Shown in pieces: positions 25,605 through 37,700 of a DNA stretch of 64,000 nt; the first letter of the stretch is position 1, and every line of letters starts with the position of its first letter. Origin of the DNA: an uncultured Verrucomicrobiae bacterium (GTDB lineage Bacteria > Verrucomicrobiota > Verrucomicrobiia > Limisphaerales > Palsa-1400); contig CAWFAZ010000079.1 of NCBI GenBank assembly GCA_963813995.1, forward strand, positions 23,236 to 87,235. The letters are read 5' to 3'. Both the position numbers and the translations under genes were made by a program. The notes under the pieces are model-generated. The model made no database searches and was not told the DNA's origin. It was given only the letters and a program-made list of their open reading frames with translations.

Positions 25605-25605
25605 C

Positions 25606-25866
25606 ATGAAGACCATTGAAGCCCAAATCCCGGAGCCGGTGCTCAAACAGGCGCAGGAACTGGCGGCGCGCGAGCACATCCCGCTGGAGCAGATCATCAG
25701 CCTCGCGGGCAGTCAGGCAGTCGGGGTATGGAGCAACGAGAGCTACATCGCCTTGCGCGCCAAACGCGCCAGCCGGGGGAAGTTCCTGGACGCGCTCAAG
25801 GAAGTGCCTGATGTCGAGCCGCCGGATTTCGACCGTCTGCCGGAAGGTTATGAACGAGCAGATTGA
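25606..25866 (+). CDS. Small antitoxin-like protein
   Basis: 86 aa, MKTIEAQIPEPVLKQAQELAAREHIPLEQIISLA.... The size and adjacency to the PIN remnant suggest an antitoxin. The assignment is tentative. Confidence 0.45.
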   Translation: MKTIEAQIPEPVLKQAQELAAREHIPLEQIISLAGSQAVGVWSNESYIALRAKRASRGKFLDALKEVPDVEPPDFDRLPEGYERAD

Positions 25867-26108
25867 TGCCCACGCACGACATCATAGACAATCGCAAGGA
25901 AAAGCTGGTTGACCACATCAATCGCATCCTGTCCTCAACGGAGTCGGCGCGGTTTGCGGTCGGCTATTTTTTTCTGTCCGGGCTGGAGAGCATCGCACGG
26001 CGGCTGGCGGGGGTGGCGGGTTGGGAGGCGGAAATCAACGAGAGGGTGGCCCGGCTCTACGGGCTGACGGCGGAGGAGATCAAAATCGTGGAGGGGGCCA
26101 CGAAATGA
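25866..26108 (+). pseudogene. Chimeric remnant: N-terminus of a PLD-domain helicase-type defence protein fused to a methyltransferase-type C-terminal tail
   Basis: MPTHDIIDNRKEKLVDHINRILSSTESARFAVGYFFLSGLESIARRLAGV is typical of the N-terminus of PLD-helicase restriction-like proteins. It is followed directly by WEAEINERVARLYGLTAEEIKIVEGA, typical of the C-terminus of type IIG/BREX-like methyltransferases. Only 80 aa in total. Confidence 0.5.
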
Positions 26109-29075: not shown

Positions 29076-29152
29076 GCGAGCGTAGCTCAGCCTGGTAGAG
29101 CATCACGTTGCCAACGTGAGTGTCGAGGGTTCGAATCCCTTCGCTCGCTCCA
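29076..29152 (+). tRNA. tRNA-Gly (GCC), canonical, CCA encoded
   Basis: gcgagcgTAGCTCAGCCTGGTAGAGCatcacgtTGCCAAcgtgagtgtcgaGGGTTCGAATCCCttcgctcgcTCCA. It has a standard D-loop GG and a standard TTCGAAT T-loop. Confidence 0.95.
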
Positions 29153-29284
29153 TCTCCATCAACGGCCCCGTCTTTCGACGGGAATTCGTCCAAGACAACC
29201 GCAATTCTTCCGCCATCATCCGAGGCGAAATAATTTTTTGAAATATTTCTTGCATGTAACCGATGGCTTGTGCTATCGTCTTAC

Positions 29285-29517
29285 AAGTTCGATGAAAACT
29301 TGCTTGAACATATCAGCCACGAGTTGGCCGACGATGACGGTCGCAAAAGCGACACGTCATAGCCGGATTACCCGGGGCTATGTGTTTAGCCTTGGACTAT
29401 CCCTGGCGCCAATCGGGCAACGGCCCGAAGGTAATTCGGATAGACCCGGTGTAAGCAGGTAACGAATCGAAAGAGAATTTCTTCACCCTGCTTACCGCGT
29501 GTAAGCAGGGTTTTTTA
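29285..29517 (+). ncRNA. Structured leader or small RNA with mutually exclusive terminator/antiterminator
   Basis: A possible promoter (ttgcat-18 nt-tatcgt) lies near 29252-29281. Several local hairpins are present, for example atgacg-gtcgcaaaagcgac-a-cgtcat. An identical 11-mer gtgtaagcagg occurs at 29449-29459 and 29499-29509, and both copies can pair with cctgcttac at 29487-29495. Family unknown. Confidence 0.4.
29486..29517 (+). terminator. Rho-independent terminator
   Basis: ccctgcttac-cgcgt-gtaagcaggg followed by tttttt. Confidence 0.75.
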
Positions 29518-29520
29518 TTT

Positions 29521-29863
29521 TCCCTGTATAACTGAGACGAGAATGGCGGATAACGAAAGATGAACAGTCTGTGAACAAGAATAGCGCGACATCCAGGTGA
29601 TGTCTTCTGGCGACAAACTGAATTTGGCGAGGACGAGCAGAGAAGCCTCACCGGTGGGGTCTGCCCACAGCCGGAAGACAGAGCCGCCAGGACGATCCAG
29701 ACGAATTTTGCATTTACATTTTAAGGGCTTCGCAGGAGGTGTGCCCCCAAACACCGAAACAGCCGCCGTGAAACCGCGGGTTGGTATCGCAAGATAGCAA
29801 GAGGTGTTTGTTCTTTGTTGAAATGGCATGGGCCGGAAGCGTGGCAACGCTTCCGGCCCTTTT
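29521..29863 (+). ncRNA. Second non-coding stretch ending in a strong hairpin-T tract. Function unknown.
   Basis: There is no credible ORF on either strand. It ends with a 12-bp GC-rich hairpin plus tttt. I could not match it to SRP, 6S, tmRNA or RNase P. Confidence 0.3.
29830..29863 (+). terminator. Rho-independent terminator-like hairpin 7 nt upstream of the first tRNA-like unit
   Basis: gggccggaagcg-tggcaa-cgcttccggccc followed by tttt. Confidence 0.7.
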
Positions 29864-29869
29864 ACTTTC

Positions 29870-29943
29870 GCGGCTGTGATTTAACAGCAGAATGCCTCCC
29901 TGCCAGGGAGGACGCCCGGGCGCAACCCCCGGCAGCCGCACCA
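29870..29943 (+). tRNA. tRNA-like unit 1, anticodon GCC (Gly), non-canonical T-loop CGCAACC
   Basis: Acceptor gcggctg/cagccgc; 3-bp D stem att/aat with loop taacagcag; anticodon arm cctcc-cuGCCag-ggagg (GCC at 29902-29904); T arm ccggg-cgcaacc-cccgg; A73; CCA encoded. Confidence 0.7.
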
Positions 29944-29952
29944 ATTCTTGAC

Positions 29953-30024
29953 AGGCTGCGCGTCAGCATGCGGCAGAGTTTCCAAAACTCAGCCCACTCC
30001 GGGTGGCACGGAGGCAGCCTGCCA
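29953..30024 (+). tRNA. tRNA-like unit 2, anticodon CCA (Trp), T-loop GGUGGCA
   Basis: Acceptor aggctgc/gcagcct (A1-U72) with G73, as in bacterial tRNA-Trp; anticodon loop ttCCAaa (29982-29984) on a 4-bp stem; T arm ctccg-ggtggca-cggag; CCA encoded. Confidence 0.6.
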
Positions 30025-30033
30025 ATTTTTTAC

Positions 30034-30108
30034 GGGGTCGTGGCAGACAAGCAATGCACTTGCCCTGCAAGCAAGCCGATGTGGGAGCGTTACCCACCGA
30101 CTCCACCA
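30034..30108 (+). tRNA. tRNA-like unit 3, anticodon UGC (Ala), T-loop AGCGUUA, C33
   Basis: Acceptor ggggtcg/cgactcc containing G3-U70 (30036/30102) plus A73, the Ala identity set; anticodon arm cttgc-ccUGCaa-gcaag (30066-30068); T arm gtggg-agcgtta-cccac; CCA encoded. Confidence 0.7.
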
Positions 30109-30114
30109 TTTCAC

Positions 30115-30187
30115 TGCGGGGAGAATGAGATTCAGGCGAGCCTCATAAGCTCAGCCTTCGTGGGTGCAACTCCCGCCCCCGCTACCA
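30115..30187 (+). tRNA. tRNA-like unit 4, anticodon CAU (Met/Ile2), weakest fold
   Basis: Anticodon loop ctCATaa (30144-30146); T arm gtggg-tgcaact-cccgc; acceptor tgcgggg/ccccgct with a U1-U72 mismatch; unusual D arm gaat-gag-attc; A73 and CCA. Confidence 0.4.
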
Positions 30188-30203
30188 ATTTAAGGTTCAA
30201 AAT

Positions 30204-30279
30204 GCTGCCGTGGCCGAACACATGAGGCATCCGTCTTCTAAACGGAACGATGCAGGTGGAATTCCTGCCGGCAGTGCCA
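30204..30279 (+). tRNA. tRNA-like unit 5, anticodon UCU (Arg), T-loop UGGAAUU
   Basis: Acceptor gctgccg/cggcagt; D stem gcc/ggc; anticodon arm tccgt-ctTCTaa-acgga (30237-30239); T arm gcagg-tggaatt-cctgc; G73; CCA. Confidence 0.7.
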
Positions 30280-30280
30280 T

Positions 30281-30354
30281 TGCCAGGTGGTGTCAAAGTA
30301 GCACGGCGGCCTGTTAAGCCGCTTGTCTTGGTGCGAGTCCAAGTCTGGCAGCCA
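30281..30354 (+). tRNA. tRNA-like unit 6, anticodon GUU (Asn), T-loop UGCGAGU
   Basis: Acceptor tgccagg/tctggca (U1-A72) with G73, as in E. coli tRNA-Asn; D stem gtg/cac; anticodon arm gcggc-ctGTTaa-gccgc (30313-30315); T arm cttgg-tgcgagt-ccaag; CCA. Confidence 0.7.
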
Positions 30355-30361
30355 ATTTCAC

Positions 30362-30452
30362 GGAAGGCAGGCAGATACAAGCTGGCTGCACCTGTCCCGA
30401 AAACAGGATCGGCTCAAACCCGAGGTCGGAGCGTTACCGACGCCTTCCGCCA
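30362..30452 (+). tRNA. tRNA-like unit 7, class II, anticodon CGA (Ser), T-loop AGCGUUA, C33
   Basis: Acceptor ggaaggc/gccttcc; 4-bp D stem gcag/ctgc; anticodon arm cctgt-ccCGAaa-acagg (30398-30400); long variable arm tcgg-ctcaaac-ccga (30409-30423); T arm gtcgg-agcgtta-ccgac; G73; CCA. Confidence 0.7.
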
Positions 30453-30481
30453 ATTCCAAACCCATAACGAAAGGAAACCCC

Positions 30482-30637
30482 ATGAAATCCATTGTTCGCC
30501 ATCAAAGCCAGTTGCTCTTTCGCAAGAGCTACAAACCAAAGCGTGCCATTCGAATCCGGCCGCTGCCGCGGCTGAATATTGTGTTCCGCCCCGTGAACCG
30601 GTTTGGCGTGAAGCCGCAATTGACAATCGTCTCGTAG
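30482..30637 (+). CDS. Possible small, very basic protein (51 aa) inside the tRNA-like array
   Basis: aaaggaaacccc ATG (Shine-Dalgarno-like). MKSIVRHQSQLLFRKSYKPKRAIRIRPLPRLNIVFRPVNRFGVKPQLTIVS. Its last three sense codons and stop (tag at 30635-30637) overlap the first 10 nt of unit 8 (30628-30637). No family recognised. Confidence 0.3.
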   Translation: MKSIVRHQSQLLFRKSYKPKRAIRIRPLPRLNIVFRPVNRFGVKPQLTIVS

Positions 30638-30698
30638 CTCAAGAGCAGAGCGCCCGGCTGATAACCGGAAGACCGCGGAGCGTTACCGCGCGGGACGA
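30628..30698 (+). tRNA. tRNA-like unit 8, anticodon GAU (Ile), canonical-looking D arm, T-loop AGCGUUA, no CCA
   Basis: Acceptor cgtctcg/cgggacg; ta-gctc-aagagca-gagc; anticodon loop ctGATaa (30660-30662); T arm cgcgg-agcgtta-ccgcg; A73 followed by tcc. Confidence 0.65.
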
Positions 30699-30739
30699 TC
30701 CGTCTTCGCTCTCCGAGCTTCGGCTCGGCGAGCCAAATT
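30699..30739 (+). repeat. Conserved ~40-nt motif, copy 1 (also at 32098-32138 and 33487-33527)
   Basis: tccgtcttcgctctccgagcttcggctcggcgagccaaatt. It can form gctc-t-ccgagc-ttcg-gctcgg-c-gagc. It follows directly after a tRNA-like 3' end. Confidence 0.7.
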
Positions 30740-30814
30740 CCCCGGGTAGCTGAGGCAGATTAGCGCCTCCCTGAAGAGGAGGAGACGTTGGCGCGATACC
30801 AACCCCGGGGGCCA
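30740..30814 (+). tRNA. tRNA-like unit 9, anticodon GAA (Phe), T-loop CGCGAUA
   Basis: Acceptor ccccggg/cccgggg; ta-gctg-aggcagat-tagc; anticodon arm cctcc-ctGAAga-ggagg (30773-30775); T arm gttgg-cgcgata-ccaac; G73; CCA. Confidence 0.7.
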
Positions 30815-30818
30815 TTTT

Positions 30819-31256
30819 AAATGCAGAGTTTGGAGTGGGGAGTGTAGAATGCTTAATCCGGCGGATTCCGACGGGCGGTGTTGATCGAAGAAACGGCGAT
30901 GGCGACCAACTCATTGGCCTCTCGCAGCAACGCTCCAGCCTGATGGAGCGTGGTTTTGTCGGAGTCAATCAACAATTCCATCCAAAAGGCGGACTCGTCG
31001 GCTTCTTCCAGAACCAAACCCATTTTGGCAATGAAGTCGGCTTTTGATCTTGCGCGGCAAACCGCCCGATAATTGGCGCCAACCGACGTGCCGGAACGCA
31101 ACAATTGCCGACCCAACGTTTTGCAAGTTTCCGTGGTCGGAAGGCATTCGACAAAGCGAATCACGTCCAGTGCGAATTGCCGTGTCCGATTCTGAAGGTC
31201 TTGGTGTTTCATAATAATTTCGGCATTCTGCACTTTGCACTTATAACTCTCAACTT
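30819..31256. repeat. Long imperfect inverted repeat (about 34-nt arms) enclosing the four-helix-bundle ORF: an IVS-like stem
   Basis: Left arm aaatgcagagtttggagtggggagtgtagaatgc (30819-30852) pairs with right arm gcattctgcactttgcacttataactctcaactt (31223-31256), about 27 of 34 positions including G-U pairs. Confidence 0.75.
30853..31212 (-). CDS. Four-helix-bundle protein (23S rRNA intervening-sequence protein family)
   Basis: MKHQDLQNRTRQFALDVIRFVECLP...GRQLLRSGTSVGANYRAVCRARSKADFIAKMGLVLEEADESAFWMELL is the hallmark of the family. The ORF could start at 31233. Confidence 0.85.
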   Translation of the reverse strand: MKHQDLQNRTRQFALDVIRFVECLPTTETCKTLGRQLLRSGTSVGANYRAVCRARSKADFIAKMGLVLEEADESAFWMELLIDSDKTTLHQAGALLREANELVAIAVSSINTARRNPPD

Positions 31257-31262
31257 CTTCCC

Positions 31263-31340
31263 GCTCTCAAAGTGTAATCAGATCTGCACGCCGCCCTGCG
31301 AAGGCGGAGGTTCGTGGTGCAAATCCACGTGAGAGCGCCA
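31263..31340 (+). tRNA. tRNA-like unit 10, anticodon GCG (Arg), T-loop UGCAAAU
   Basis: Acceptor gctctca/tgagagc; D stem gtg/cac; anticodon arm ccgcc-ctGCGaa-ggcgg (31298-31300); T arm cgtgg-tgcaaat-ccacg; G73; CCA. Confidence 0.7.
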
Positions 31341-31345
31341 CTTTT

Positions 31346-31442
31346 AAGTGCAGAGTGCTGAGTGCAAAATGCAGAGTGAAGAGTGGAAGGACGCGAACAT
31401 GCCGCTTTTCACTCTGCACTTTGAATTCACAACTTTGCACTT
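31346..31442. repeat. Empty copy of the purine/pyrimidine long hairpin (no ORF inside)
   Basis: aagtgcagagtgctgagtgcaaaatgcagagtgaagag ... cttttcactctgcactttgaattcacaactttgcactt. It uses the same sequence vocabulary as the arms around the four-helix ORF. Confidence 0.7.
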
Positions 31443-31449
31443 TTGCAAT

Positions 31450-31524
31450 GGTGATCATGATGTAACAGCAGCATCACGCCCCGTGACGGCGTTTGTGCCG
31501 GTGCAAATCCGGTTGGTCACCCCA
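31450..31524 (+). tRNA. tRNA-like unit 11, anticodon GUG (His) with G-1 and C73, T-loop UGCAAAU, C33
   Basis: g(-1) at 31450; acceptor gtgatca/tggtcac; D stem atg/cat with loop taacagcag; anticodon arm acgcc-ccGTGac-ggcgt (31483-31485); T arm gccgg-tgcaaat-ccggt; C73; CCA. Confidence 0.7.
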
Positions 31525-31536
31525 ATTCCTCATGGA

Positions 31537-31611
31537 ATCCCGTTGGCCGAGCAGCGCAGGCGGCGGTCTGCAGAACCGCAAAGGCTGGTGCAACTCCAGC
31601 ACGGGATTCCA
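31537..31611 (+). tRNA. tRNA-like unit 12, anticodon GCA (Cys) with U73, T-loop UGCAACU
   Basis: Acceptor atcccgt/acgggat; D stem gcc/ggc; anticodon arm gcggt-ctGCAga-accgc (31570-31572); T arm gctgg-tgcaact-ccagc; discriminator U (the Cys identity element); CCA. Confidence 0.7.
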
Positions 31612-31634
31612 ATTTCGCCGAACCAGCCGGAGGA

Positions 31635-32054
31635 TCACGAGTCGCCCATCACCGTGACCGCAATCGTGCGCCGGCGCGGTTTGATGTCGCACTCAAGATG
31701 AAAGATTTGCTGCCATGTGCCCAGCACGGGTTTGCGATCTTTGACTGGCACCGTGAGCGAAGGGCCCAGCATCGTCGCCTGCAAATGCGAATGGCCGTTG
31801 CCATCATGCCAGGCGTGTTCGTGGCCGTAGTCCCGACTGGGCGGAAACAGCTTGTCCAATATATTGGGCAGGTCTTCCTGAAGACCCGGCTCGAATTCAA
31901 TGGTGCCAATCGCGGCGGTGCTGCCGACGTTGAAAATATGCACAACGCCGGACCGCACGCCTGATGCGTTCACGATCCGGGCCACCTCGTCGGTGAGGTC
32001 GTGCATCTCTTTGTGTCCGGTGGTTTGAACCTGGATTTCTCGTTGATAGGTCAT
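31635..32054 (-). CDS. YjbQ-family (secondary thiamine-phosphate synthase-like) protein, antisense to the array
   Basis: ATG at 32054. MTYQREIQVQTTGHKEMHDLTDEVARIV...GVVHIFNVGSTAAIGTIEFEPGLQEDL...HEHAWHDGNGHSHLQATMLGPSLTVPV matches the YjbQ/UPF0047 pattern. Confidence 0.85.
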   Translation of the reverse strand: MTYQREIQVQTTGHKEMHDLTDEVARIVNASGVRSGVVHIFNVGSTAAIGTIEFEPGLQEDLPNILDKLFPPSRDYGHEHAWHDGNGHSHLQATMLGPSLTVPVKDRKPVLGTWQQIFHLECDIKPRRRTIAVTVMGDS

Positions 32055-32097
32055 GCCGTTGTTTATACCGAAGCTGCCGTCCAAGCGAGGTTTTCCC

Positions 32098-32138
32098 TCC
32101 AGCCTTCGCTCTGCGAGCTGCGGCTCGGCGAGCCATTT
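32098..32138 (+). repeat. Conserved ~40-nt motif, copy 2
   Basis: tccagccttcgctctgcgagctgcggctcggcgagccatttt. Confidence 0.7.
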
Positions 32139-32144
32139 TCCGCG

Positions 32145-32212
32145 ACGCGAATACCGGTGCCGGCCAGGGTTTCACAGACCTGGCTGCGGCGGTTCAACTC
32201 CGCCTTCGTGTC
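32145..32212 (+). tRNA. tRNA-like unit 13, anticodon CAC (Val). The only unit with a canonical T-loop (UUCAACU). No CCA.
   Basis: Acceptor acgcgaa/ttcgtgt, extendable to an 11-bp helix across 32141-32215; short D arm ccg-gtgc-cgg; anticodon loop ttCACag (32173-32175); T arm ggcgg-ttcaact-ccgcc. Confidence 0.5.
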
Positions 32213-32218
32213 GCGTCC

Positions 32219-32295
32219 GGGTTGCAAGCATTGCAGTGATGCAGCCCCGAACGCTTTCGGGGCAGAGCACGGTGCGAATCCGTGGCAACTCACCA
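32219..32295 (+). tRNA. tRNA-like unit 14, anticodon arm aberrant (6-bp stem with 8-nt loop AACGCUUU, or longer stem), T-loop UGCGAAU
   Basis: Acceptor gggttgc/gcaactc; D stem gca/tgc; T arm cacgg-tgcgaat-ccgtg; A73; CCA. The anticodon arm gccccg-aacgcttt-cggggc cannot form a 7-nt loop. Confidence 0.5.
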
Positions 32296-32300
32296 ATTTC

Positions 32301-32400
32301 AAGTGAAGAGTTGAGAGTGACGAATGCAGAATGGAGAGGATGAGAGGTTATCGCGTGCCAGCCGGTTTTTCATTCTGCATTCCGCACTCTGCACTTCTTC
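32301..32400. repeat. Empty copy of the long purine/pyrimidine hairpin
   Basis: aagtgaagagttgagagtgacgaatgcagaatgga ... ttcattctgcattccgcactctgcacttcttc. Confidence 0.7.
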
Positions 32401-32402
32401 CG

Positions 32403-32479
32403 GCTCCCGTAGCTCAAATTATCAGAGTGCGACGCTTCGAACGTCGCGGTTGCAGGTGAGAGTCCTGCCGGGAGTGCCA
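32403..32479 (+). tRNA. tRNA-like unit 15, anticodon UCG (Arg), T-loop UGAGAGU
   Basis: Acceptor gctcccg/cgggagt; ta-gctc-aaattatca-gagt; anticodon arm cgacg-ctTCGaa-cgtcg (32437-32439); T arm gcagg-tgagagt-cctgc; G73; CCA. Confidence 0.7.
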
Positions 32480-32485
32480 ATTCAG

Positions 32486-32562
32486 GCCGCGTTAGCCCAA
32501 CTACCAGAGGCGCTCCGCTCAGGACGGAGAGGTTGGGGGTGGAACTCCCTCACGCGGCACCA
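32486..32562 (+). tRNA. tRNA-like unit 16, anticodon CAG (Leu) but with a short (class I) variable region, T-loop UGGAACU
   Basis: Acceptor gccgcgt/acgcggc; D stem gcc/ggc; anticodon arm ctccg-ctCAGga-cggag (32520-32522); 5-nt variable region; T arm ggggg-tggaact-ccctc; A73; CCA. Confidence 0.65.
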
Positions 32563-32583
32563 TTTGGCGGCCCTGCGCCGGCA

Positions 32584-32655
32584 GCTCCCGTAGCCCAAGG
32601 CAGAGGCGACGGGCTTAAACCCCGTGCAGTGTCAGTGCAAATCTGACCGGGAGCA
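32584..32655 (+). tRNA. tRNA-like unit 17, anticodon UAA (Leu), class I-like, T-loop UGCAAAU, 3' CCG instead of CCA
   Basis: Acceptor gctcccg/cgggagc; ta-gcc-caaggcaga-ggc; anticodon arm acggg-ctTAAac-cccgt (32616-32618); T arm gtcag-tgcaaat-ctgac; A73 followed by ccg. Confidence 0.65.
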
Positions 32656-32663
32656 CCGCTTTC

Positions 32664-32738
32664 GCCCGTGTAGCCCAAGGCAGAGGCCCGAAGCTCAAAC
32701 CTTCGACAGTGCAGGCGCAAGTCCTGCCACGGGCACCA
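32664..32738 (+). tRNA. tRNA-like unit 18, anticodon CAA (Leu), class I-like, T-loop CGCAAGU
   Basis: Acceptor gcccgtg/cacgggc; D arm identical to unit 17; anticodon arm cgaag-ctCAAac-cttcg (32696-32698); T arm gcagg-cgcaagt-cctgc; A73; CCA. Confidence 0.65.
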
Positions 32739-32742
32739 TTTT

Positions 32743-32834
32743 GGAATGTCAACCGGACGAGCGAGCCGGGCCTGTTTGCTAAACAGCGCGCTCCTGGAAA
32801 CGGGAGTGTGGCGCAAGTCCACGGCATTCCGCCA
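32743..32834 (+). tRNA. tRNA-like unit 19, class II, anticodon GCU (Ser), T-loop CGCAAGU
   Basis: Acceptor ggaatgt/gcattcc; 4-bp D stem ccgg/ccgg; anticodon loop ttGCTaa (32778-32780); long variable arm ctcc-tggaaacg-ggag; T arm tgtgg-cgcaagt-ccacg; G73; CCA. Confidence 0.65.
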
Positions 32835-32839
32835 TTTTC

Positions 32840-32931
32840 GCGCGCGTAGCTCAAAGAGAGCCGGCGGCCTTATACCCCGCATCGCACTGGATCAGTGCCG
32901 GGTTCCGGAGCGTTACCGGACGCGCGCACCA
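32840..32931 (+). tRNA. tRNA-like unit 20, class II with 9-nt anticodon loop CCUUAUACC (identity unclear), T-loop AGCGUUA
   Basis: Acceptor gcgcgcg/cgcgcgc; ta-gctc-aaaga-gagc; anticodon stem gcgg/ccgc with loop 32868-32876; 6-bp variable arm gcactg-gat-cagtgc (32884-32898); T arm tccgg-agcgtta-ccgga; A73; CCA. Confidence 0.5.
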
Positions 32932-32936
32932 CTTCC

Positions 32937-33014
32937 GTCCCTGTGGTGTAGTCCAGCCAGCACGCCTGCCTCTCATGCAGGAGATCACCGGAGCAAAGCC
33001 GGTCAGGGACGCCA
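32937..33014 (+). tRNA. tRNA-like unit 21, anticodon CUC (Glu), T-loop AGCAAAG
   Basis: Acceptor gtccctg/cagggac; D stem gtg/cac with loop tagtccagccag; anticodon arm cctgc-ctCTCat-gcagg (32972-32974); T arm accgg-agcaaag-ccggt; G73; CCA. Confidence 0.7.
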
Positions 33015-33020
33015 CTTTTC

Positions 33021-33094
33021 GGCCTGCAAGCATTAAAGTGATGCAACGGTCTTTTAAGCCGTTGAACGGGGAGCGTTACCCCGGCGGGCCACCA
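33021..33094 (+). tRNA. tRNA-like unit 22, anticodon UUU (Lys), T-loop AGCGUUA
   Basis: Acceptor ggcctgc/gcgggcc; D stem gca/tgc; anticodon arm acggt-ctTTTaa-gccgt (33053-33055); T arm cgggg-agcgtta-ccccg; A73; CCA. Confidence 0.7.
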
Positions 33095-33097
33095 GTT

Positions 33098-33343
33098 TTA
33101 AGCAGAGTTTTCGCCAAGGCTCATTGCTGTATTCGACACGGGCATTTCGCCGTAATGGAATCCGGTTTCGTCTTCATAACCAATCGGCACGAGATGATTG
33201 ATGGCCGTGTGCCATATAACCGCGATGCGAGTCCAACTTCCCGGCCGCGCGGCTGGAACGATCAGACCGTCGCCGTTAGACGAGGACACCCATTCGGCTG
33301 GAACGCCTCCATCTGTATGACTGATAGTTGTCATGCTCCACAT
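33098..33343 (-). CDS. Hypothetical small protein antisense to the array
   Basis: 81-aa ORF (MWSMTTISHTDGGVPAEWVSSSNGDGLIVPAARPGSW...). No recognisable family and weak translation signals. Confidence 0.3.
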   Translation of the reverse strand: MWSMTTISHTDGGVPAEWVSSSNGDGLIVPAARPGSWTRIAVIWHTAINHLVPIGYEDETGFHYGEMPVSNTAMSLGENSA

Positions 33344-33414
33344 ATATCGGCTGAAACCAACGCGAGCTTACCATTTTTGTCAATTGATGAGCAATTTTTG
33401 ACCATCCTTTCGGG

Positions 33415-33489
33415 TGCCTCGTGGCATAATCAGGAGCGCGCCGGTCTCTGACACCGGAGAACCTGGAGCAAAACCAGGCGGGGCAGCCA
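33415..33489 (+). tRNA. tRNA-like unit 23, anticodon CUG (Gln) with U1-A72 and G73, T-loop AGCAAAA
   Basis: Acceptor tgcctcg/cggggca; anticodon arm ccggt-ctCTGac-accgg (33448-33450); T arm cctgg-agcaaaa-ccagg; G73; CCA. The D stem is poorly defined. Confidence 0.6.
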
Positions 33490-33527
33490 GCCTTCGCCTC
33501 GCGGCTGCGGCTCGGCAAGCCAATTTC
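33487..33527 (+). repeat. Conserved ~40-nt motif, copy 3
   Basis: ccagccttcgcctcgcggctgcggctcggcaagccaatttcc. It overlaps the CCA of unit 23. Confidence 0.7.
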
Positions 33528-33566
33528 CCATCGTGCGCAGACACCAACAAAGAACAAACACCGGAA

Positions 33567-33652
33567 GAAAGTGCGGAATGCAGAGTGCAGAGTGGAAAGT
33601 GCGTCATGGAACGCGGCGCTCGTCTTCATTCTGCACTCCGCATTCCAAACTC
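33567..33652. repeat. Empty copy of the long purine/pyrimidine hairpin, just upstream of the HNH gene
   Basis: gaaagtgcggaatgcagagtgcagagtggaaag ... cttcattctgcactccgcattccaaactc. Confidence 0.7.
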
Positions 33653-33664
33653 TTGACTGAATTT

Positions 33665-34249
33665 ATGAACGACATACTGAACAAGTCGATGGTGCTGGTG
33701 CTGAACCGTAACTGGCAGGCCGTCAACGTCCGCACGCCACAGGAGGCCTTCTGCATGATGGCGACGAACGTGGCGACCGGCCTGGAAATCGAAGGCGAAA
33801 ACCACATCCGTCCCGTGATCTGGAACGAGTGGATCACTCTGCCCATTCGTCCGCAGGACAATGCGGTGCGAACCGTCCGCGGCCCGATTCGTGTGCCCAC
33901 GGTGATCGTGGCGGTGAATTACGCCAGGGTGCCGAAGAAGCGCCCGAAGCTGTGCGCCCGCGCCATTCGCGAGCGCGATAGCAACCGCTGTCAATACACC
34001 GGCCGCGTGCTGCGCCAGGGCGAGGGCAGCATTGACCACGTTGTGCCTCGTTCGCGCGGCGGCAAGAACGCTTGGGAGAATCTGGTTTGGGCCGGCAAAG
34101 ACGTAAACGCGCGCAAGGGCAACCGACTGCCACACGAGGCCGGCTTGAAGCTGCTCTCGGTGCCGCGCGCGCCGAAGGAACTGCCGGCGACGGCGATCAT
34201 TCGCAACGCTCACGGAATTCCTGAATGGAAACTGTTTGTGCAGCACTGA
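33665..34249 (+). CDS. HNH endonuclease
   Basis: ATG at 33665. MNDILNKSMVLVLNRNWQAVNV... and RCQYTG...IDHVVPRSRGGKNAWENLVWAGKDVNARKGN form the HNH motif. A GC hairpin (34252-34282) follows the stop. Confidence 0.85.
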   Translation: MNDILNKSMVLVLNRNWQAVNVRTPQEAFCMMATNVATGLEIEGENHIRPVIWNEWITLPIRPQDNAVRTVRGPIRVPTVIVAVNYARVPKKRPKLCARAIRERDSNRCQYTGRVLRQGEGSIDHVVPRSRGGKNAWENLVWAGKDVNARKGNRLPHEAGLKLLSVPRAPKELPATAIIRNAHGIPEWKLFVQH

Positions 34250-34723
34250 AGACTGTTGGGCCGCCTGCCTGTGGCGGCCCAACAATTGAAATCAAGAAGC
34301 GTGTCTTTGGCTCTTGGCTCCGCTCCAATACCGTTAAATGTGGTTCATTTTCATTACGGCCCGTCTGTTCATCTTCCTCAGCTTCCAACTCCGCCTCGCG
34401 GCGGCGCTGTCGAGGCCGTGTTCCGTCGTGAACAACCTGATTCGACGAGTGGGACTTTCACCCGCGTTGCAATCAACTTCACTGGCGCAACCTCACCATT
34501 TCTTGGCAATTCTTTGCCTTAAATTGCGCGATATCATGGAGTTGAGGCTCAAACCGACCACTTTTTCATTTTTAGTGACTTTTATTTAATTTTCGGTTGA
34601 CTTGTTTTGGCATATCGGCATAAACAGGGCATGTATCAGGAGAAGCCCGATTTTCTCAATGGTGCTCTTCCTGCCAACTGTTCGCGAATTAGTGGTCCGT
34701 TAAAAATAAAGAAAAAGATTACT

Positions 34724-37700
34724 ATGAGAGCAACACTTTTCTGCCGGGTTCTGACGTTTGCAATGATACCTGCCATGACCCAAGTGACGGCATTGGCCAA
34801 CCCTTTGGGCGGCGCGGTTGTTTCGGGGAGTGCCGCCATTGGCTATTCCAGCACCGCTGTCAACATCAACCAGAACAGCGCTCGGGCTATAATTGACTGG
34901 GCTTCTTTTAATATTGCTGCTGGCGAAAGCACATCCTTTCATTTTTTAGGTCGGAGCGGGGCCAACAGCGCTGTTCTCAACGAGGTCAGCGCCAGTGCCG
35001 GGCAGTCATTTATAAACGGCCTGCTCAACTCTTATGTCGGCGCCGGAAACAGCAAAATTGGCGGCAGTGTTTATGTGCTCAACCCCAATGGCATTCTCTT
35101 TGGCTCGCAAGGCTCGGTCAATGTTGGAAGTTTCGTTGGAACAACGCTTTCCATTGACAATCACTCTTTTATGGCGGGGGGAAACCTCACCTTGGGCAGC
35201 GCGAATTTGAGCGGCGATTCAACGGCGGCCATTCAGAATCAGGGACAGATTAATGCGCTTGGCGGGGACATATTCCTGGTCGCTCAACAAGTTGAAAATG
35301 ATGGCAGTCTCAGCGCCAACCATGTGGGGTTGGCCGCCGGTTCATACGTGCAACTCAATCAGGCGGGGCTTCCTGGCGGGCAACACATTTCGATCCTCGC
35401 GGGCAATCCATCAACTCCCGCCGCCACCGGCGTCGTGAATTCCGGCACTATTCAGGCGGTCACAGCCGAGTTGAAGGCGGCGGGCGGCAATATCTATGCC
35501 CTGGCCATTAACAACTCCGGCGTGGTCCGGGCCAACACCCTGACCGGCCAGGGCGGCCACATTTACTTGACTGCCAATGGCGGAAATATTCAAAACTCTG
35601 GAACTCTGTCGGCTTCCGGCGTCTCGGGCAAGGGCGGGTCCGTCATCGTCACTGGCGGCAACATTACTTTGGCTGGCGGCAGCGTGGTGAATGTCAGTGG
35701 CCAGACTGGCGGGGGCACGGCCCTGATCGGCGGTGGCCCTCACGGCACCGACCCGTCCGTGCAAGACGCCCGGCAAACCACCGTGGCGGCGGGCGCCAAC
35801 ATTATTGCCGATGCCGTGACAGATGGCAACGGCGGCAAAGTGGTCGTCTGGTCGGACGACACCAGTTTTGCCGGTGCCATCAGTGCTCGCGGCGGCGCGA
35901 ATGGCGGCAACGGCGGATCAGTCGAAGTTTCCGGCCACTACCTGTCCTTTACTGGTTCGGTCAATACGCTGGCGCCGCATGGCAAAGCTGGAACTCTTCT
36001 CCTCGATCCAGATGACCTGATCATTAACAACGCTGACAATAACAGTGGTCCTGTCCCCCCCCCTACGACGTTTGAGCCCAGTGGCCTCGCTTCGACGATT
36101 TCTTGGAGCACCATCACTGGCCCTGGCGGTCTGGGTTCGGGCAACGTTACGGTCACCACTACGGCATTCACGGGGCCGGATAACGGTGACCCGGGGAACG
36201 GGACGATCACGGTCGGCGCCGCATCCTCCGGTTTGGCCACCAGCGCCGGCCATAATCTGACGATTAATGCTGCTAACAATCTGATCGTCAACTTCGCTAT
36301 TAACGATACTGGAACAGGGAATTTGACCCTGCAAAGTGGCGGGGCTGTAAGTCTTAATGCGACCGTGACGGGCAGCACCGTGACGCTCAATGGCGCTGTC
36401 ACAGGCTCCAGCCTGTTGACTGCCACGACTCTGAATTTGCAGGGCAGCGGCGCTGTTGGGGCGACTGGCGCGGGCAACGCGCTCAACACCACTGTCAGCG
36501 ACATCGTGCTGGGCAAGAGTGGCGGCAATAGTTTTATCAATCAAACCGCAGGTACGCCGGTGGACATTGGCGGGACGACCGGCGGCGGCAACCTGACTTT
36601 GACATCCGGGGCGGCAACGGTGGATGGGGTGGCCAACCTGACCGCCACCGGCGGGACGGTGACGTTTGTCAACAGCGGAGCGTTGACCGGGAGCGGGCTT
36701 GTGACGGCGGCCACGTTGAATCTGGACGGCAGCGCCAATGTGGGCGCGACCGGGGCTGGCAACGCGCTGAACACGACGGTGGGCACCATCAGCCTGGGTG
36801 AGACAGCTTCGGCCAACAACTGGATCAACCAGAATGCGGCCACACCCGTGGACATTGGCGGGACGACCGATGGCGGCAACCTGACTTTGACATCCGGGGC
36901 GGCCACGGTGGATGGGGTGGCCAACCTGACCGCGACCGGCGGGACGGTGACGTTTGTCAACAGCGGGGCGTTGACCGGGAGCGGGCTTGTGACGGCGGCT
37001 ACGTTGAATCTGGACGGCAGCGCCAATGTGGGCGCAACCGGGGCCGGCAACGCGCTGAACACGCAAGTGAGTACCATCAGCCTGGGTGAGACAGCTTCGG
37101 CCAACAACTGGATCAGCCAGAATGCGGCCACGGCAGTGGACATTGGCGGGACGACCGATGGCGGCAACCTGACTTTGACATCCGGGGCGGCCACGGTGGA
37201 TGGGGCGGCGAATCTGACCGCGACCGGCGGGACAGTGACGTTTGTCAACAGCGGGGCGTTGACCGGGAGCGGGCTTGTGACGGCGGCTACGTTGAATCTG
37301 GACGGCAGCGCCAATGTGGGCGCAACCGGGGCCGGCAACGCGCTGAACACGCAAGTGAGTACCATCAGCCTGGGTGAGACAGCTTCGGCCAACAACTGGA
37401 TCAGCCAGAATGCGGCCACGGCAGTGGACATTGGCGGGACGACCGATGGCGGCAACCTGACTTTGACATCCGGGGCGGCCACGGTGGATGGGGCGGCGAA
37501 TCTGACCGCGACCGGCGGGACAGTGACGTTTGTCAACAGCGGGGCGTTGACCGGGAGCGGGCTTGTGACGGCGGCTACGTTGAATCTGGACGGCAGCGCC
37601 AACGTGGGCGCGACCGGGGCCGGCAACGCGCTGAACACGACGGTGGGCACCATCAGCCTGGGTGAGACAGCTTCGGCCAACAACTGGATCAGCCAGAATG

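Follow-up and report, generated by a model that had tools for sequence, protein, structure and literature searches.

In the elbow of a normal tRNA, the corner contact between G18 and U55 is treated as "universal." A DNA stretch of 64,000 nucleotides from an uncultured Verrucomicrobiae bacterium (hereafter the window) contains an array of tRNA-like units in which position 55 is almost always G, raising the questions of whether such units are tRNAs, how their elbow has changed and what purpose a chromosomal set of them might serve.

The Array Units as tRNAs

Between positions 29870 and 33489 of the window, all 23 tRNA-like units of the initial annotation were confirmed at their coordinates on the + strand (Table 1). 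A purpose-written cloverleaf fitter placed all 23, the Rfam tRNA model (RF00005) scored 15 over its gathering threshold (41–54 bits) and one more in an E-value run (30740–30811, 46.6 bits), ARAGORN with default settings called 13, and MFE folding gave a cloverleaf for most. The tRNA-Gln type of unit 23 is the usual final unit of related arrays.

Table 1. Features of the tRNA array module in the window.
Feature	Position	Strand	Remarks
Promoter-like element	29250..29279	+	TTGCAT N17 TGcTATCGT (TTGACT in most homologues); conserved block at module left edge, alignment
Leader ORF 1, 56 codons	29292..29462	+	stop codon abuts antiterminator copy GTAAGCAGG
Intrinsic terminator 1	29485..29520	+	11-bp stem and T-run; 5′ arm has 29451-29459 as alternative partner
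Leader ORF 2, about 60-66 codons	29597..29797	+	conserved C-terminus ..KGFGGGVPLNTETAAVKPRVGIE; in frame in 13/13 homologues
Long-range inverted repeat, left arm	29803..29820	+	18 nt (GGTGTTTGTTCTTTGTTG); invariant in 13-sequence leader alignment
Intrinsic terminator 2	29830..29868	+	13-bp stem; directly 5′ of unit 1
Unit 1, tRNA-Gly(GCC)	29870..29943	+	T-loop CGCAACC, D-loop AACAGCA; Rfam, fitter
Unit 2, tRNA-Trp(CCA)-like	29953..30024	+	T-loop GGTGGCA (G55, T56); G73; fitter, MFE
Unit 3, tRNA-Ala(TGC)	30034..30108	+	T-loop AGCGTTA; G3:U70 kept; ARAGORN, Rfam, fitter
Unit 4, tRNA-Met(CAT)-like	30115..30187	+	T-loop TGCAACT; D-loop 3 nt; fitter, MFE
Unit 5, tRNA-Arg(TCT)	30204..30279	+	T-loop TGGAATT (G56); D-loop GAACACATGA (A-C); ARAGORN, Rfam, fitter
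Unit 6, tRNA-Asn(GTT)	30281..30354	+	T-loop TGCGAGT; ARAGORN, Rfam, fitter
Unit 7, tRNA-Ser(CGA)	30362..30452	+	long variable arm; T-loop AGCGTTA; fitter
Small basic ORF, 51 aa, within array	30483..30638	+	conserved in 8 related arrays (53-88% aa identity)
Unit 8, tRNA-Ile(GAT)	30628..30698	+	T-loop AGCGTTA; no encoded CCA; ARAGORN, Rfam, fitter
Unit 9, tRNA-Phe(GAA)	30740..30814	+	T-loop CGCGATA; ARAGORN, Rfam E-value run, fitter
Cargo gene, 23S_rRNA_IVP four-helix-bundle protein	30853..31215	-	PF05635; GCAGAGTG-repeat hairpin halves on both flanks
Unit 10, tRNA-Arg(GCG)	31263..31340	+	T-loop TGCAAAT; Rfam, fitter
Unit 11, tRNA-His(GTG)	31451..31524	+	T-loop TGCAAAT; G-1 (31450) and C73 kept; Rfam, fitter
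Unit 12, tRNA-Cys(GCA)	31537..31611	+	T-loop TGCAACT; U73; ARAGORN, Rfam, fitter
Cargo gene, UPF0047/YjbQ family	31635..32054	-	in 3/80 related loci
Unit 13, aberrant tRNA-like element	32141..32215	+	T-loop TTCAACT; Rfam run: tRNA-Sec, 25 bits; fitter, MFE
Unit 14, tRNA-like	32219..32295	+	T-loop TGCGAAT; fitter, MFE
Unit 15, tRNA-Arg(TCG)	32403..32479	+	T-loop TGAGAGT (A56); D-loop AAATTATCA (no G); ARAGORN, Rfam, fitter
Unit 16, 'Leu'(CAG)	32486..32562	+	short variable loop; T-loop TGGAACT (G56); D-loop CAACTACCAGA; ARAGORN, Rfam, fitter
Unit 17, 'Leu'(TAA)	32584..32655	+	short variable loop; T-loop TGCAAAT; D-loop CAAGGCAGA; no CCA; ARAGORN, Rfam, fitter
Unit 18, 'Leu'(CAA)	32664..32738	+	short variable loop; T-loop CGCAAGT; ARAGORN, Rfam, fitter
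Unit 19, tRNA-Ser(GCT)-like	32743..32834	+	long variable arm; T-loop CGCAAGT; fitter, MFE
Unit 20, long-variable-arm tRNA (ARAGORN: TAT)	32840..32931	+	T-loop AGCGTTA; ARAGORN, fitter
Unit 21, tRNA-Glu(CTC)	32937..33014	+	T-loop AGCAAAG; ARAGORN, Rfam, fitter
Unit 22, tRNA-Lys(TTT)	33021..33094	+	T-loop AGCGTTA; D-loop TAAAGTG; A8:U14; ARAGORN, fitter
Unit 23, tRNA-Gln(CTG)	33415..33489	+	T-loop AGCAAAA; Rfam, fitter
Long-range inverted repeat, right arm	33545..33562	+	CAACAAAGAACAAACACC; upstream of HNH gene in 76/80 related loci
HNH endonuclease, 194 aa	33665..34249	+	sole protein always linked to array

The array units look like real, chargeable tRNAs for most amino acids because identity elements are kept (G3:U70 in Ala, G-1/C73 in His, U73 in Cys), as are the discriminators G73 in Trp, Asn, Gln, Glu and Ser and A73 in Leu, Lys, Ala and Ile. 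In an ungapped alignment of 94 sequences the stems are 96–99.8% paired, with double changes numbering in the hundreds; sliding the 3′ partner as a control lowers the pairing to about 40%. The 862 related units carry 40 different anticodons and, in 824 cases, an encoded CCA. However, a long variable arm is missing from three 'Leu' units, and units 13 and 14 are unable to decode normally. Unit 13, which has an 11-bp terminal stem, no CCA and an oversized anticodon loop with TCA, has a counterpart in one related locus (L135), and its region matches another (L125); the anticodon arm of unit 14 consists of 8 bp and a tetraloop, without a normal anticodon loop.

A Compensated Change of the Elbow

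Unit-by-unit reading of the T-loops bore out the initial claim of G55 in 22 of the 23 units, unit 13, which alone has a canonical T-loop (TTCAACT), being the sole exception, and the Rfam covariance-model alignment itself places G at 55 (e.g., GGUGCAAAUCC). The T-loops had been listed correctly apart from AGCGTTA, which is present five times rather than six. Of the 22 G55 units, 18 have C at position 56, and the others have T (unit 2), G (units 5 and 16) or A (unit 15); the A56 and G-less D-loop of unit 15 had been recognized from the start. The loss of the D-loop GG was stated slightly too broadly: almost all units have A-G at the 18/19 place, or A with a base complementary to that at 56, but GG is still found in units 17 and 18 (CAAGGCAGA), where the assignment of 18/19 is ambiguous. 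A tRNA-Gly(GCC) at 29076–29152 (67.7 bits) is, as had been noted, canonical throughout, with GG and TTCGAAT, and the seven host tRNAs in the flanks of related modules (Pro, Ala, Cys, Lys, His, Gly, and Leu) all have GG and TTCRANN, in keeping with the earlier view that the trait is not lineage-wide.

The initial annotation had proposed a coordinated A18-G55 replacement with 19/56 retained, and had named canonical tRNAs sharing the trait, or a lack of coupling across homologues, as outcomes that would refute it; neither was seen, and the coupling at 18/55, 19/56 and 54/58 proved tight. Among 536 distinct related tRNAs of fixed architecture (7-nt D-loop), which leaves no alignment guesswork, the 18/55 pairs are G/U (243), A/G (273), A/U (2) and G/G (1), i.e., only three mixed combinations (Fisher p about 3e-148, a statistic that ignores phylogeny, on sequences picked by a cloverleaf fitter blind to loops). 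At 19:56 these tRNAs have G:C (518), U:A (8) or A:U (6), and the adjacent positions 16 and 20 of the D-loop are only weakly associated. Where the D-loop has 8 nt, units with A56 showed no clear U19. The 54:58 pair, counted over 2097 units, is U:A in 1568, A:U in 243 (the swap first noticed in the AGCGTTA class), G:G in 104, C:A in 75 and A:A in 71.

The coupled change of G18 to A and U55 to G separates close homologues (0.84–0.96 identity outside the loops) in at least six isoacceptor families, so that the coupling reflects repeated compensation and not a single founder event. Unit 22 (TAAAGTG with AGCGTTA), for instance, differs in this way from its Xanthomonas phage X1 homologue (TAAGGTG with ATCGTTA). 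Unit 17 shares about 80–83% identity with tRNA-Leu(TAA) genes from several Streptomyces phages; the one whose loops were read, from phage Tomas, has GG and TTCGAGT, unlike the G55 of unit 17. The elbow has thus been remade through compensated substitutions: G18·U55 turns into A18·G55, 19:56 remains Watson-Crick (G:C, or C:G, U:A, A:U), and U54·A58 is either preserved or swapped to A:U, G:G, C:A or A:A. The coordinated change recurs in hundreds of related tRNAs from bacteria and phages.

The T-loops of FMN and cobalamin riboswitches, which are not tRNAs, use UGCRA and an intercalating adenine, which inserts into the stack between loop positions 4 and 5 and forms bonds with the G2 sugar edge. 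By analogy with these established structures, the array elbow would be a riboswitch-type T-loop (G plus intercalating A), an arrangement in which the L-shape would stay and the UUC (TΨC) sequence would be erased. The consensus of non-tRNA T-loops is YGNRA, with an intercalator that is almost exclusively adenine bonding the G2 sugar edge (bioRxiv 10.1101/2022.12.26.521914), and a normal tRNA is inactivated by a single change at G18-U55, G19-C56 or U54-A58 (PMC4117946).

A Horizontally Spreading Module

The 23 units form the cargo of a long tRNA array ("L-array") module that is self-contained, spreads horizontally and measures about 5 kb (window about 29225–34250). Its parts are, in order, a promoter-like element, a two-terminator leader, the tRNAs, the 18-nt long-range stem and the gene for an HNH endonuclease. 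The promoter-like element fails a generic sigma-70 scan in the window. The arms of the long-range stem show compensatory changes in three related loci (L151, L161, and L188), and the 23S_rRNA_IVP cargo gene is present in only 3 of 80.

At least 544 relatives of the HNH endonuclease exist; the best 80 (74–92% identity) are nearly all from Verrucomicrobiota, and where a locus includes upstream DNA, the HNH gene is nearly always preceded by an array of G55 tRNAs, with 30 units at most. G55 occurs in 854 of the 862 distinct same-strand units of these 80 genomic loci, which speaks against chance. Several genomes have more than one copy of the module, and its flanking genes differ and are unrelated from locus to locus. 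The module is typical of Verrucomicrobiota (Limisphaerales/Pedosphaera-type) genomes and is present in many of them. Some phage tRNA arrays also carry G55-type tRNAs, the G55 share of viral arrays ranging from 0 to 100%, and one viral contig (L058) has an array followed by HNH, as in the module. HNH relatives also lie beside the fully canonical tRNAs of phage arrays Tunturi_5 and Mx1, and the HNH gene therefore does not explain G55. Long horizontally transferred tRNA arrays are already known, and the rewired elbow is a new variation on them.

Putative Regulation of the Array

Terminator 1 appears to be under trp-type attenuator control. Leader ORF 1 is open with the same stop place in 13 of 13 homologous leaders and contains all 20 amino acids, as do 12 of 13 homologues (chance about 2–3%); its stop codon overlaps the putative antiterminator, and the alternative pairing of the terminator 1 5′ arm gives a duplex of -15.4 vs. 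-19.6 kcal/mol. The chromosomal module would be held silent by its two terminators, and, since the 56-codon leader peptide has all 20 amino acids, a shortage of any charged tRNA would switch the array on. A precedent is the Anabaena L-array, which is induced, with a linked homing endonuclease, by translational stress (PMC8421152).

A Possible Spare tRNA Set

We infer that a regulated spare tRNA set is the best reading of the array. The best explanation of the whole, to which we give about an even chance of being right, is a mobile L-array with a rebuilt elbow, serving as a regulated spare tRNA set hidden from readers of U54/U55. The rewired tRNAs would probably go unrecognized by enzymes and antiviral nucleases that depend on a normal T-loop, and a complete spare set would escape such agents, mainly the T-loop-cutting nucleases of antiviral defence and bacterial warfare, but also TruB and TrmA; since about two units in three retain U54, TrmA may nevertheless modify those. 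Escape from TruB/TrmA and protection from elbow-recognising nucleases had been suggested in the initial annotation as possible roles, and literature on antiviral nucleases that cut the T-loop (PMC13462974) now backs them. Cash, a Schlafen nuclease associated with CRISPR, cleaves tRNA on the 5′ side of U55 within UUC, its cutting is abolished by single U54 or U55 mutations, and whether phage tRNAs are its targets is posed as an open question in the same study (PMC13462974). CdiA-CT(E479) cleaves the T-loop between T and Ψ (PMC9086364). In phages, G55 tRNAs would act in counter-defence, and tRNA arrays have already been described as putative anti-defence elements (PMC12803027).

On the other hand, a nuclease-proof chromosomal set would undermine the abortive-infection nucleases of the host unless tightly controlled, and a search for genes encoding a T-loop nuclease turned up none, either within the window or linked with the module. 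What lies nearby is limited to a RhuM/PDC-S05 gene and one for a mad3-like ATPase.

tRNA-Like Units with an Altered Elbow

The contact between G18 and Ψ55 is taught as a near-universal feature of tRNA. The units of the array abandon it almost without exception, G standing at T-loop position 55 in 22 of the 23 and unit 13 alone having the canonical loop (TTCAACT). The initial annotation, which had called attention to this and to a loss of the D-loop GG, was exact in every entry of its T-loop list except for the number of AGCGTTA loops, which is five instead of six; the loss of GG stands insofar as A-G occupies the place of G18-G19, units 17 and 18 (CAAGGCAGA), which retain GG, being ambiguous. 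The elbow set G18, G19, U54, U55, C56, and A58 is not kept: G18 is replaced by A and U55 by G (22/23), while positions 54/58 are altered in 11 units and position 56 in four. Among the 22 G55 units, C56 is found in 18; of the other four, unit 2 has T, units 5 and 16 have G with D-loops that carry A-C, and unit 15 has A with a D-loop (AAATTATCA) devoid of any G, as had been annotated. The motif YGNRA occupies positions 54-58 in 14 of these 22 units (UGCRA, UGGAA, UGAGA, and CGCRA), the AGCGU, AGCAA, and GGUGG classes deviating from it. The neighboring tRNA-Gly(GCC) is, as stated in the same annotation, fully canonical.

All 23 annotated units, which lie on the + strand, were placed by a cloverleaf fitter that is blind to loop sequence, and MFE folding gave a cloverleaf for most of them. 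Such units are easily overlooked: ARAGORN with default settings called 13 and missed 10 of the 23, and a scan with Rfam RF00005 missed eight at the gathering score (29 bits), 15 units scoring 41-54 bits against 67.7 for the canonical tRNA-Gly, a 16th appearing in an E-value run and seven being missed altogether. In the Rfam covariance-model alignments, a G of the array units falls beneath the U55 column. About 20 of the 23 units fit cleanly to a 7-bp acceptor stem, a 5-bp T stem, a 7-nt T-loop, and a 7-nt anticodon loop with U33; the exceptions are abnormal anticodon arms in units 13 and 14, a 9-nt anticodon loop fitted in unit 20, and C33 in a few units. The identity elements read by aminoacyl-tRNA synthetases match the anticodon, save for the discriminators of the Phe (G73) and Gly (A73) units: G3:U70 is kept in the Ala unit, an encoded G-1 faces C73 in the His unit, U73 is kept in the Cys unit, G73 is found in the Trp, Asn, Gln, Glu, and both Ser units, and A73 in the Leu, Lys, Ala, and Ile units. 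CCA is encoded in 20 of the 23 units and in 824 of the 862 distinct units of related arrays, which together present 40 different anticodons. In an ungapped alignment of 94 units of the same architecture, the four stems are 96-99.8% paired (~40% with the 3′ partner slid) with 922 double-change cells, a result that is partly circular because the fitter that selected the sequences demands stems; the results on the loops are unaffected.

A few units are unusual in other ways. Unit 13, the sole bearer of a canonical T-loop, is nevertheless an abnormal tRNA (see the table of features); an element of the same type occurs in locus L135, and the region of unit 13 matches locus L125. The anticodon arm of unit 14 is closed as an 8-bp stem with a tetraloop and therefore lacks a usable anticodon, A18/G55, A8:U14, and CCA being kept. 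Units 16-18 bear the "Leu" anticodons CAG, TAA, and CAA on a type-II-like D-arm with a variable loop of just 5 nt. Short-arm tRNA-Leu(TAA/CAA) genes are also found in Streptomyces phages and in Myxococcus phage Mx1 (loci L001, 4001-4075, and L205, 9905-9978), and that of Mx1 adjoins a homolog of the HNH gene that follows the array.

Coupling of the Elbow Positions

The initial annotation had proposed a coordinated replacement in which A18-G55 takes over from G18-U55. This proposal is supported, as positions 18/55 and 19:56 are coupled across related tRNAs and switch together in pairs of homologs. Among viral units with a rule-based assignment of positions, U55/C56 occurs with GG in 757 of 761 cases and G55/C56 with AG in 154 of 165 (these and the following are raw counts, uncorrected for phylogeny). 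An assignment of positions 18 and 19 by family offset was dropped as too noisy because D-loop lengths vary, and tables of fixed architecture were used instead. The latter comprise 536 distinct units whose D-arm has a stem of 4 bp and a loop of 7 nt; positions 18 and 19 then correspond to loop bases four and five, and no choice of alignment is needed. In this set the combinations at 18/55 are G/U 243, A/G 273, A/U 2, G/G 1, C/G 12, and U/G 3 (Fisher p ~3e-148), so that with G55, position 18 is A in 273 units and G in one; those at 19:56 are G:C 518, U:A 8, A:U 6, and G:U 2, with two mismatches. Positions 16 and 20 associate weakly with 55. In longer D-loops, the G56 class has A-(U/C), consistent with pairing, and some A56 units have no clear U19.

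The reverse-Hoogsteen pairs vary in a similar manner. Across 2097 units from viral and genomic loci, 54:58 is U:A in 1568, A:U in 243, G:G in 104, C:A in 75, A:A in 71, and C:C in 15, and the other such pair, 8:14, draws on the same alternatives (U:A 1695, A:U 135, A:A 111, and G:G 42). In units of the Lys type, A8:U14 and A54:U58 are swapped together.

The coupled change of G18 to A and U55 to G separates close homologs (0.84-0.96 identity outside the loops) in the Glu(TTC), Val(TAC), Ile(GAT), Gln(TTG), Ser(GCT), and Lys(TTT) families, and units of the window are as similar to T55 phage tRNAs, often of the same anticodon, as to each other, or more so. Repeated compensation is therefore indicated rather than a single odd ancestor. 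The altered elbow is also not a trait of the lineage, as had been annotated, since the housekeeping tRNAs that flank related arrays (Pro, Ala, Cys, Lys, His, Gly, and Leu) all have GG and TTCRANN.

In normal tRNA, the elbow is defined by the contacts G18-U55, G19-C56, and U54-A58 and stabilized by T-loop modifications and by modification of G18 (PMC7912444), and single mutations at any of these contacts are not tolerated (PMC4117946). The T-loops of FMN and cobalamin riboswitches follow the consensus YGNRA, and the base that intercalates between their loop positions 4 and 5 is almost always an adenine, which is joined by two hydrogen bonds to the sugar edge of the position-2 G (bioRxiv 10.1101/2022.12.26.521914). 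UGCAA or UGCGA together with A18 reproduces this arrangement, from which we infer that the tRNAs of the array keep their L-shape by means of a riboswitch-type T-loop. Such a rebuilt elbow, in which A18·G55 takes the inner place and the outer G19:C56 platform would be preserved, is very probably the correct structural explanation.

Relatives in Phages and Bacterial Genomes

BLAST searches of individual units against phage records revealed a resemblance to phage tRNAs. Unit 22 (Lys) is ~80% identical to an unannotated tRNA of Xanthomonas phage X1, whose D-loop and T-loop read TAAGGTG and ATCGTTA against TAAAGTG and AGCGTTA in unit 22; unit 17 is similar to the tRNA-Leu(TAA) found in Streptomyces phages, the copy of phage Tomas having GG and TTCGAGT. 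A first scan of viral contigs with the AGCGTTA T-arm pattern yielded 120 loci, most of them ordinary tRNA arrays of phages in which a single tRNA has AGCGTTA or ATCGTTA; in the viral locus L058, G55 dominates (14/15), and the loci L004, L085, L090, and L023 are also rich in G55. A second scan with the TGCGAAT pattern found few or no tRNAs at most matches and a handful of G55-rich arrays, the share of G55 among the viral arrays being 0, 39, 46, 57, and 100%. Conversion therefore proceeds gene by gene, and both types of elbow work in the same cell.

An alignment of the HNH protein searched against one genome per species returned at least 544 relatives. The best 80 of them (74-92% identity) come nearly all from Verrucomicrobiota MAGs (Limisphaerales, Pedosphaera, and "subdivision 3"), often with two or three copies of the module per genome. 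In nearly all of these loci having upstream DNA, a same-strand G55 array of up to 30 units precedes the HNH gene. G55 is present in 854 of the 862 distinct same-strand units and A-G in the D-loop of ~93%, the T55 tRNAs of these loci being mostly housekeeping genes outside the arrays. A textbook contact has very probably been replaced wholesale by a riboswitch-type contact in more than 1000 distinct tRNA genes for most amino acids, and these genes form a natural experiment on the extent to which the tRNA elbow is truly fixed.

Organization of the Module

Conservation with related loci extends from the promoter-like element to the stop codon of the HNH gene, the flanks being unshared. With several copies per genome and flanking genes that differ between loci, the array is supernumerary and horizontally mobile; its 23 units are packed in 3.62 kb in a single orientation.

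Features of the module and its surroundings (positions in the window)
Feature	Position	Description	Remark
RhuM and ATPase genes	23198-27133	Upstream candidate defense families	
tRNA-Gly(GCC)	29076-29152	Canonical D-loop and T-loop	
Region conserved with related loci	~29225-29290 to 34249	Promoter-like element to HNH stop codon	
Leader ORF 1	29292-29462	56 codons	Segment 1
Candidate attenuator	29292-29520	ORF 1, GTAAGCAGG, and terminator 1	Layout of trp type
Intrinsic terminator 1	29485-29520		
Leader ORF 2	Within 29597-29868	~60-66 codons, conserved	Segment 2; C-terminus KGFGGGVPLNTETAAVKPRVGIE
Perfect 18-nt inverted repeat	29803-29820 / 33545-33562	Brackets whole array	
Intrinsic terminator 2	29830-29868		
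tRNA-like array	29870-33489	23 units	+ strand
51-aa ORF	30483-30638	Very basic (MKSIVRHQSQLLFRKSYKPKRAIRIRPLPRLNIVFRPVNRFGVKPQLTIVS)	Between units 7 and 8
Hairpin GCTCTCCGAGCTTCGGCTCGGCGAGCCA	30704-30744, 32104-32144, 33491-33531	UUCG-type loop	Ends ..GCCA + A/T-rich tail, like tRNAs
Long imperfect hairpins	30820-30851, 31224-31256, 31346-31442, 32302-32396, 33568-33658	GCAGAGTG-like 7-mers	
Unit 13	32141-32215	11-bp terminal stem, no CCA, tiny D hairpin, 10-nt anticodon loop with TCA	Weak tRNA-Sec match
Unit 14	32219-32295	Closed anticodon arm	
Units 16-18	32486-32738	Type-II-like D-arm	
HNH gene	33665-34249	Small enzyme	Catalytic domain resembles IscB/Cas9 HNH domains
TPS/ShlB genes	34607-43211	1916-aa TPS-domain exoprotein, 298-aa ORF, ShlB/FhaC-type transporter	Directly downstream

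In the leader of ~640 nt, which matches no Rfam family, a conserved block resembling a promoter is accompanied by two structured segments, and a strong intrinsic terminator closes each of these; the RNAalifold consensus of the leader is almost without covariation because the leaders are too similar. Leader ORF 1 is open with a shared stop position in 13 of 13 homologs (56 codons in 12, and an in-frame insertion of three codons in one) and contains all 20 amino acids in 12 of the 13, for which the chance in a 56-mer is 2-3%. Its ATG lies a few bases past the predicted -10 element, so that the transcript would be nearly leaderless. Immediately 5′ of its stop codon, GTAAGCAGG is a copy of the 3′ arm of terminator 1 and can pair with the 5′ arm of the latter (-15.4 vs. 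-19.6 kcal/mol), the layout of a candidate trp-type attenuator. A ribosome reaching the stop codon of ORF 1 would mask the antiterminator and transcription would end, and a ribosome stalled anywhere in ORF 1 would let transcription enter the array. Between the end of leader ORF 2 and the left arm of the long-range repeat lie 8-13 nt, and the second strong terminator comes after that arm. In a subset of modules (L132, L134, L140, L171, L154, and L202; columns 1-40 of the leader alignment A2), a conserved block with the palindrome TTGAATTCAA, possibly an operator, immediately precedes the promoter-like element; the copy in the window lacks this block.

Of the 80 related loci, 76 contain the right arm of the long-range repeat. 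Exact compensatory double changes between the arms in three of them (L151, L161, and L188) and variation elsewhere that keeps G·U pairs point to an RNA stem joining leader and trailer in one long precursor, and the repeat looks like a processing stem in the style of rRNA operons. The GCTCTCCGAGCTTCGGCTCGGCGAGCCA hairpin resembles a minihelix and may be a processing signal; a search for the motif across the 80 related loci located 46 copies, spread over 27 loci and nearly all on the same strand as the array. The hairpins of GCAGAGTG-like repeats look like MITE-like insertions: 12 of the 13 matches in the 64-kb window fall inside the array region, half-sites of this type flank a 23S_rRNA_IVP four-helix-bundle gene, and one copy lies between the right repeat arm and the start of the HNH gene.

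The HNH gene lies directly downstream of the array in the window, in all 80 related loci, and in L058, where a full-length homolog (39% identity) follows the array immediately. Relatives at ~30% identity are found in phages and plasmids, and their presence within canonical phage arrays led us to reject the gene as a marker specific to G55 arrays; no array was found near the HNH matches on Acaryochloris and Tsukamurella plasmids. The N-terminal 100 residues of the protein contain no recognizable domain, and its AlphaFold model has a pLDDT of 34, the alignment of 28 sequences being too shallow. The family abounds in metagenomes, with 5604 clusters at E<=1e-5, many of them annotated "McrA," and the HNH motif is weakly similar to PtuB from Septu/retron systems.

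Proposed Function and Alternative Explanations

The nucleotides that have been erased are those read by two published nucleases. Cash, a CRISPR-associated nuclease of the Schlafen type, cleaves on the 5′ side of U55 in UUC and is blocked by a single mutation of U54 or U55, its authors leaving open whether it targets phage tRNAs (PMC13462974), and CdiA-CT(E479) cuts between T and Ψ of the T-loop (PMC9086364). In the array units, the nucleotides recognized by Cash are substituted (U55, often U54), and UUC is destroyed by both variant classes of phage arrays, UGC (G55) and AUC (A54:U58 swap). This coincidence favors a spare tRNA set insensitive to agents that read the T-loop, in keeping with the view of tRNA arrays as putative anti-defense elements (PMC12803027). 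The set would be kept off by attenuation and turned on when charged tRNA runs short; the two terminators and the leader-ORF attenuator lead to the prediction of low basal expression with induction under translational stress. To this functional part, which is read from sequence, we give at best an even chance. The fullest version of the proposal is tentative and rather unlikely as a whole: a self-contained "translation backup" cassette, whose full tRNA set with a re-engineered elbow would go unseen by T-loop nucleases (Schlafen/Cash, CdiA-CT(E479)-like), whose attenuator, sampling all 20 amino acids, would activate the set upon depletion of the housekeeping tRNA pool, and which would spread among Verrucomicrobia and the phages of these bacteria together with an HNH homing endonuclease.

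The altered elbow could instead serve folding. Were A18·G55 (and A54:U58) to fold stably without Ψ55, m5U54, Gm18, or chaperoning by TruB and TrmA, tRNAs made in a burst, as upon phage infection or induction by stress, would be functional at once and the evasion of nucleases would be a side effect. Unmodified riboswitches almost always have G as the second T-loop base and adenine as the intercalator, normal tRNA relies on T-loop and G18 modifications for the stability of its elbow (PMC7912444), and the mixed viral arrays, in which both elbows work in one cell, are as expected for a folding advantage acquired per gene. However, housekeeping tRNAs never adopted a solution that seems useful in general, U54 is kept in most units, and there is no sign here of a limiting modification capacity, so that we consider this explanation unlikely, if the most serious of the alternatives. 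Protection at the level of DNA is less probable again. According to this explanation, the conserved DNA of the T-loop (GGTTCGAATCC) is a target of the linked HNH enzyme, of integrases, or of other homing enzymes, G55 protects the array, and A18 compensates. The strict linkage of the HNH gene to G55 arrays in Verrucomicrobiota and L058, and the resemblance of its domain to the DNA-cutting HNH domains of IscB and Cas9, would suit such a role, and homing endonucleases beside tRNA arrays can cut within tRNA genes (SegB, as cited in PMC8421152). Nevertheless, relatives of the same HNH family reside within fully canonical arrays, many phage arrays with one or few G55 genes lack this HNH gene, the host chromosome would not survive an enzyme that cut all canonical tRNA genes, and the A54:U58 and position-56 variants are left unexplained.

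It is more doubtful still that the units are non-translational mimics, i.e., decoys, sponges, or signaling RNAs that soak up toxins or serve as HNH substrates, with an elbow that keeps them off the ribosome and the synthetases. Units 13 and 14, which have no usable anticodon loop, the recurrence in arrays of a minihelix-like hairpin ending in CCA, and the weak similarity of the HNH domain to PtuB would fit, but a decoy would have no need of a nearly complete set of anticodons, nor of identity elements and discriminators specific to the amino acid, and the surface on which the ribosome and RNase P rely, G19:C56, is intact. Finally, neutral drift, whereby a founder effect or decay in a cryptic, unexpressed array would have fixed a functionless G55, is strongly disfavored and highly improbable, for although L-arrays are often poorly expressed (PMC8421152) and CCA has been lost or a loop is odd in a few units, G55 and A-G persist in nearly all units of the related arrays despite extensive divergence elsewhere, the coupled change recurs in separate isoacceptor lineages, and compensatory change abounds in the stems.

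Relation to Known Systems

The type of array is known. L-arrays are defined by at least 20 tRNA genes at a density of at least two per kb in one orientation (PMC4758250), that of Anabaena is induced by translational stress, and others have been noted in Verrucomicrobia (PMC8421152). Like them, the array of the window is a dense set of at least 20 same-strand, supernumerary tRNA genes with encoded CCA and horizontal transfer, and its module likewise has embedded small genes, a linked HNH-type homing endonuclease, and a putatively cryptic, regulated character. Unlike the L-arrays described, it has A18·G55 in essentially every member, its own two-terminator leader with ORFs, and the 18-nt bracketing stem. 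Altered T-loops or D-loops go unmentioned in these sources ("T-loop," "G18," and "U55" are absent from PMC8421152, and "T-loop" from PMC4758250), and neither the A18·G55 elbow, nor its spread in Verrucomicrobiota and phages, nor an all-amino-acid attenuator was found in the open-access literature searched. The systematic A18·G55 elbow is the new part.

Phage tRNA clusters that counter tRNA-targeting defenses, such as the T5 tRNAs against retron/PtuAB and PARIS (as cited in PMC13462974), likewise involve change at a known site of nuclease recognition and cleavage. Viral tRNA arrays also share related G55 tRNAs and the A54:U58 class with the array of the window. In the anti-defense phage tRNAs known so far, the changes lie in the anticodon loop of one or a few members. 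In contrast to T5-type clusters, the array is a chromosomal copy, its elbow is altered across the whole set, and the resistance is putative. Riboswitch T-loops have UGCAA or UGCGA at 54-58 and an adenine at the intercalating position (18) in common with units of the window; however, they are intramolecular docking modules and not tRNAs, and the AGCGU, GGCAG, and CGCRA variants found here go beyond the YGNRA consensus. tRNAPyl, many mitochondrial tRNAs, and allo-tRNAs lack G18G19 and/or TΨC and yet function in translation (PMC7609411), but they are single specialized tRNAs or reduced organellar sets with loosened elbows, whereas the array is a full bacterial-type set whose elbow is compensated and apparently tight. 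Like the ribosome-mediated trp and his attenuators, the leader combines an ORF with a terminator and with an antiterminator strand that the 3′ end of this ORF overlaps; the candidate attenuator differs from them in that its long leader peptide of 56 codons includes every amino acid instead of a run of one and in that it precedes tRNA genes instead of a biosynthetic operon.

The question of whether phage and bacterial tRNA arrays are built to survive T-loop-cutting antiviral nucleases thereby becomes testable. The module also offers potential parts, namely tRNAs that should escape TruB, TrmA, and T-loop nucleases, and a candidate attenuator perhaps sensing a general shortage of tRNA.

Neighboring Genes and Cargo

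The two-partner-secretion (TPS/ShlB) genes directly downstream were considered as a link to T-loop toxins and rejected, since they are not conserved with the module; they are coincidental neighbors because nothing outside the module is shared between loci. Across the related loci, tRNA-Gly, RhuM, UbiE, and a 263-aa ORF are also not conserved with it. Insertion beside host tRNA genes is not the rule, a host tRNA lying just upstream only in the window and in 1 of 21 related loci. The upstream RhuM (PADLOC PDC-S05, E=1e-144) and an ATPase resembling mad3/AriA represent candidate defense families, and the module may sit in a defense-island-like stretch beside tRNA-Gly. Cargo genes (IVP, YjbQ, and an 81-aa ORF) occur in just one to three related loci and do not belong to the mechanism. 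The small basic ORF embedded in the array is found in eight related arrays, with 53-88% identity.
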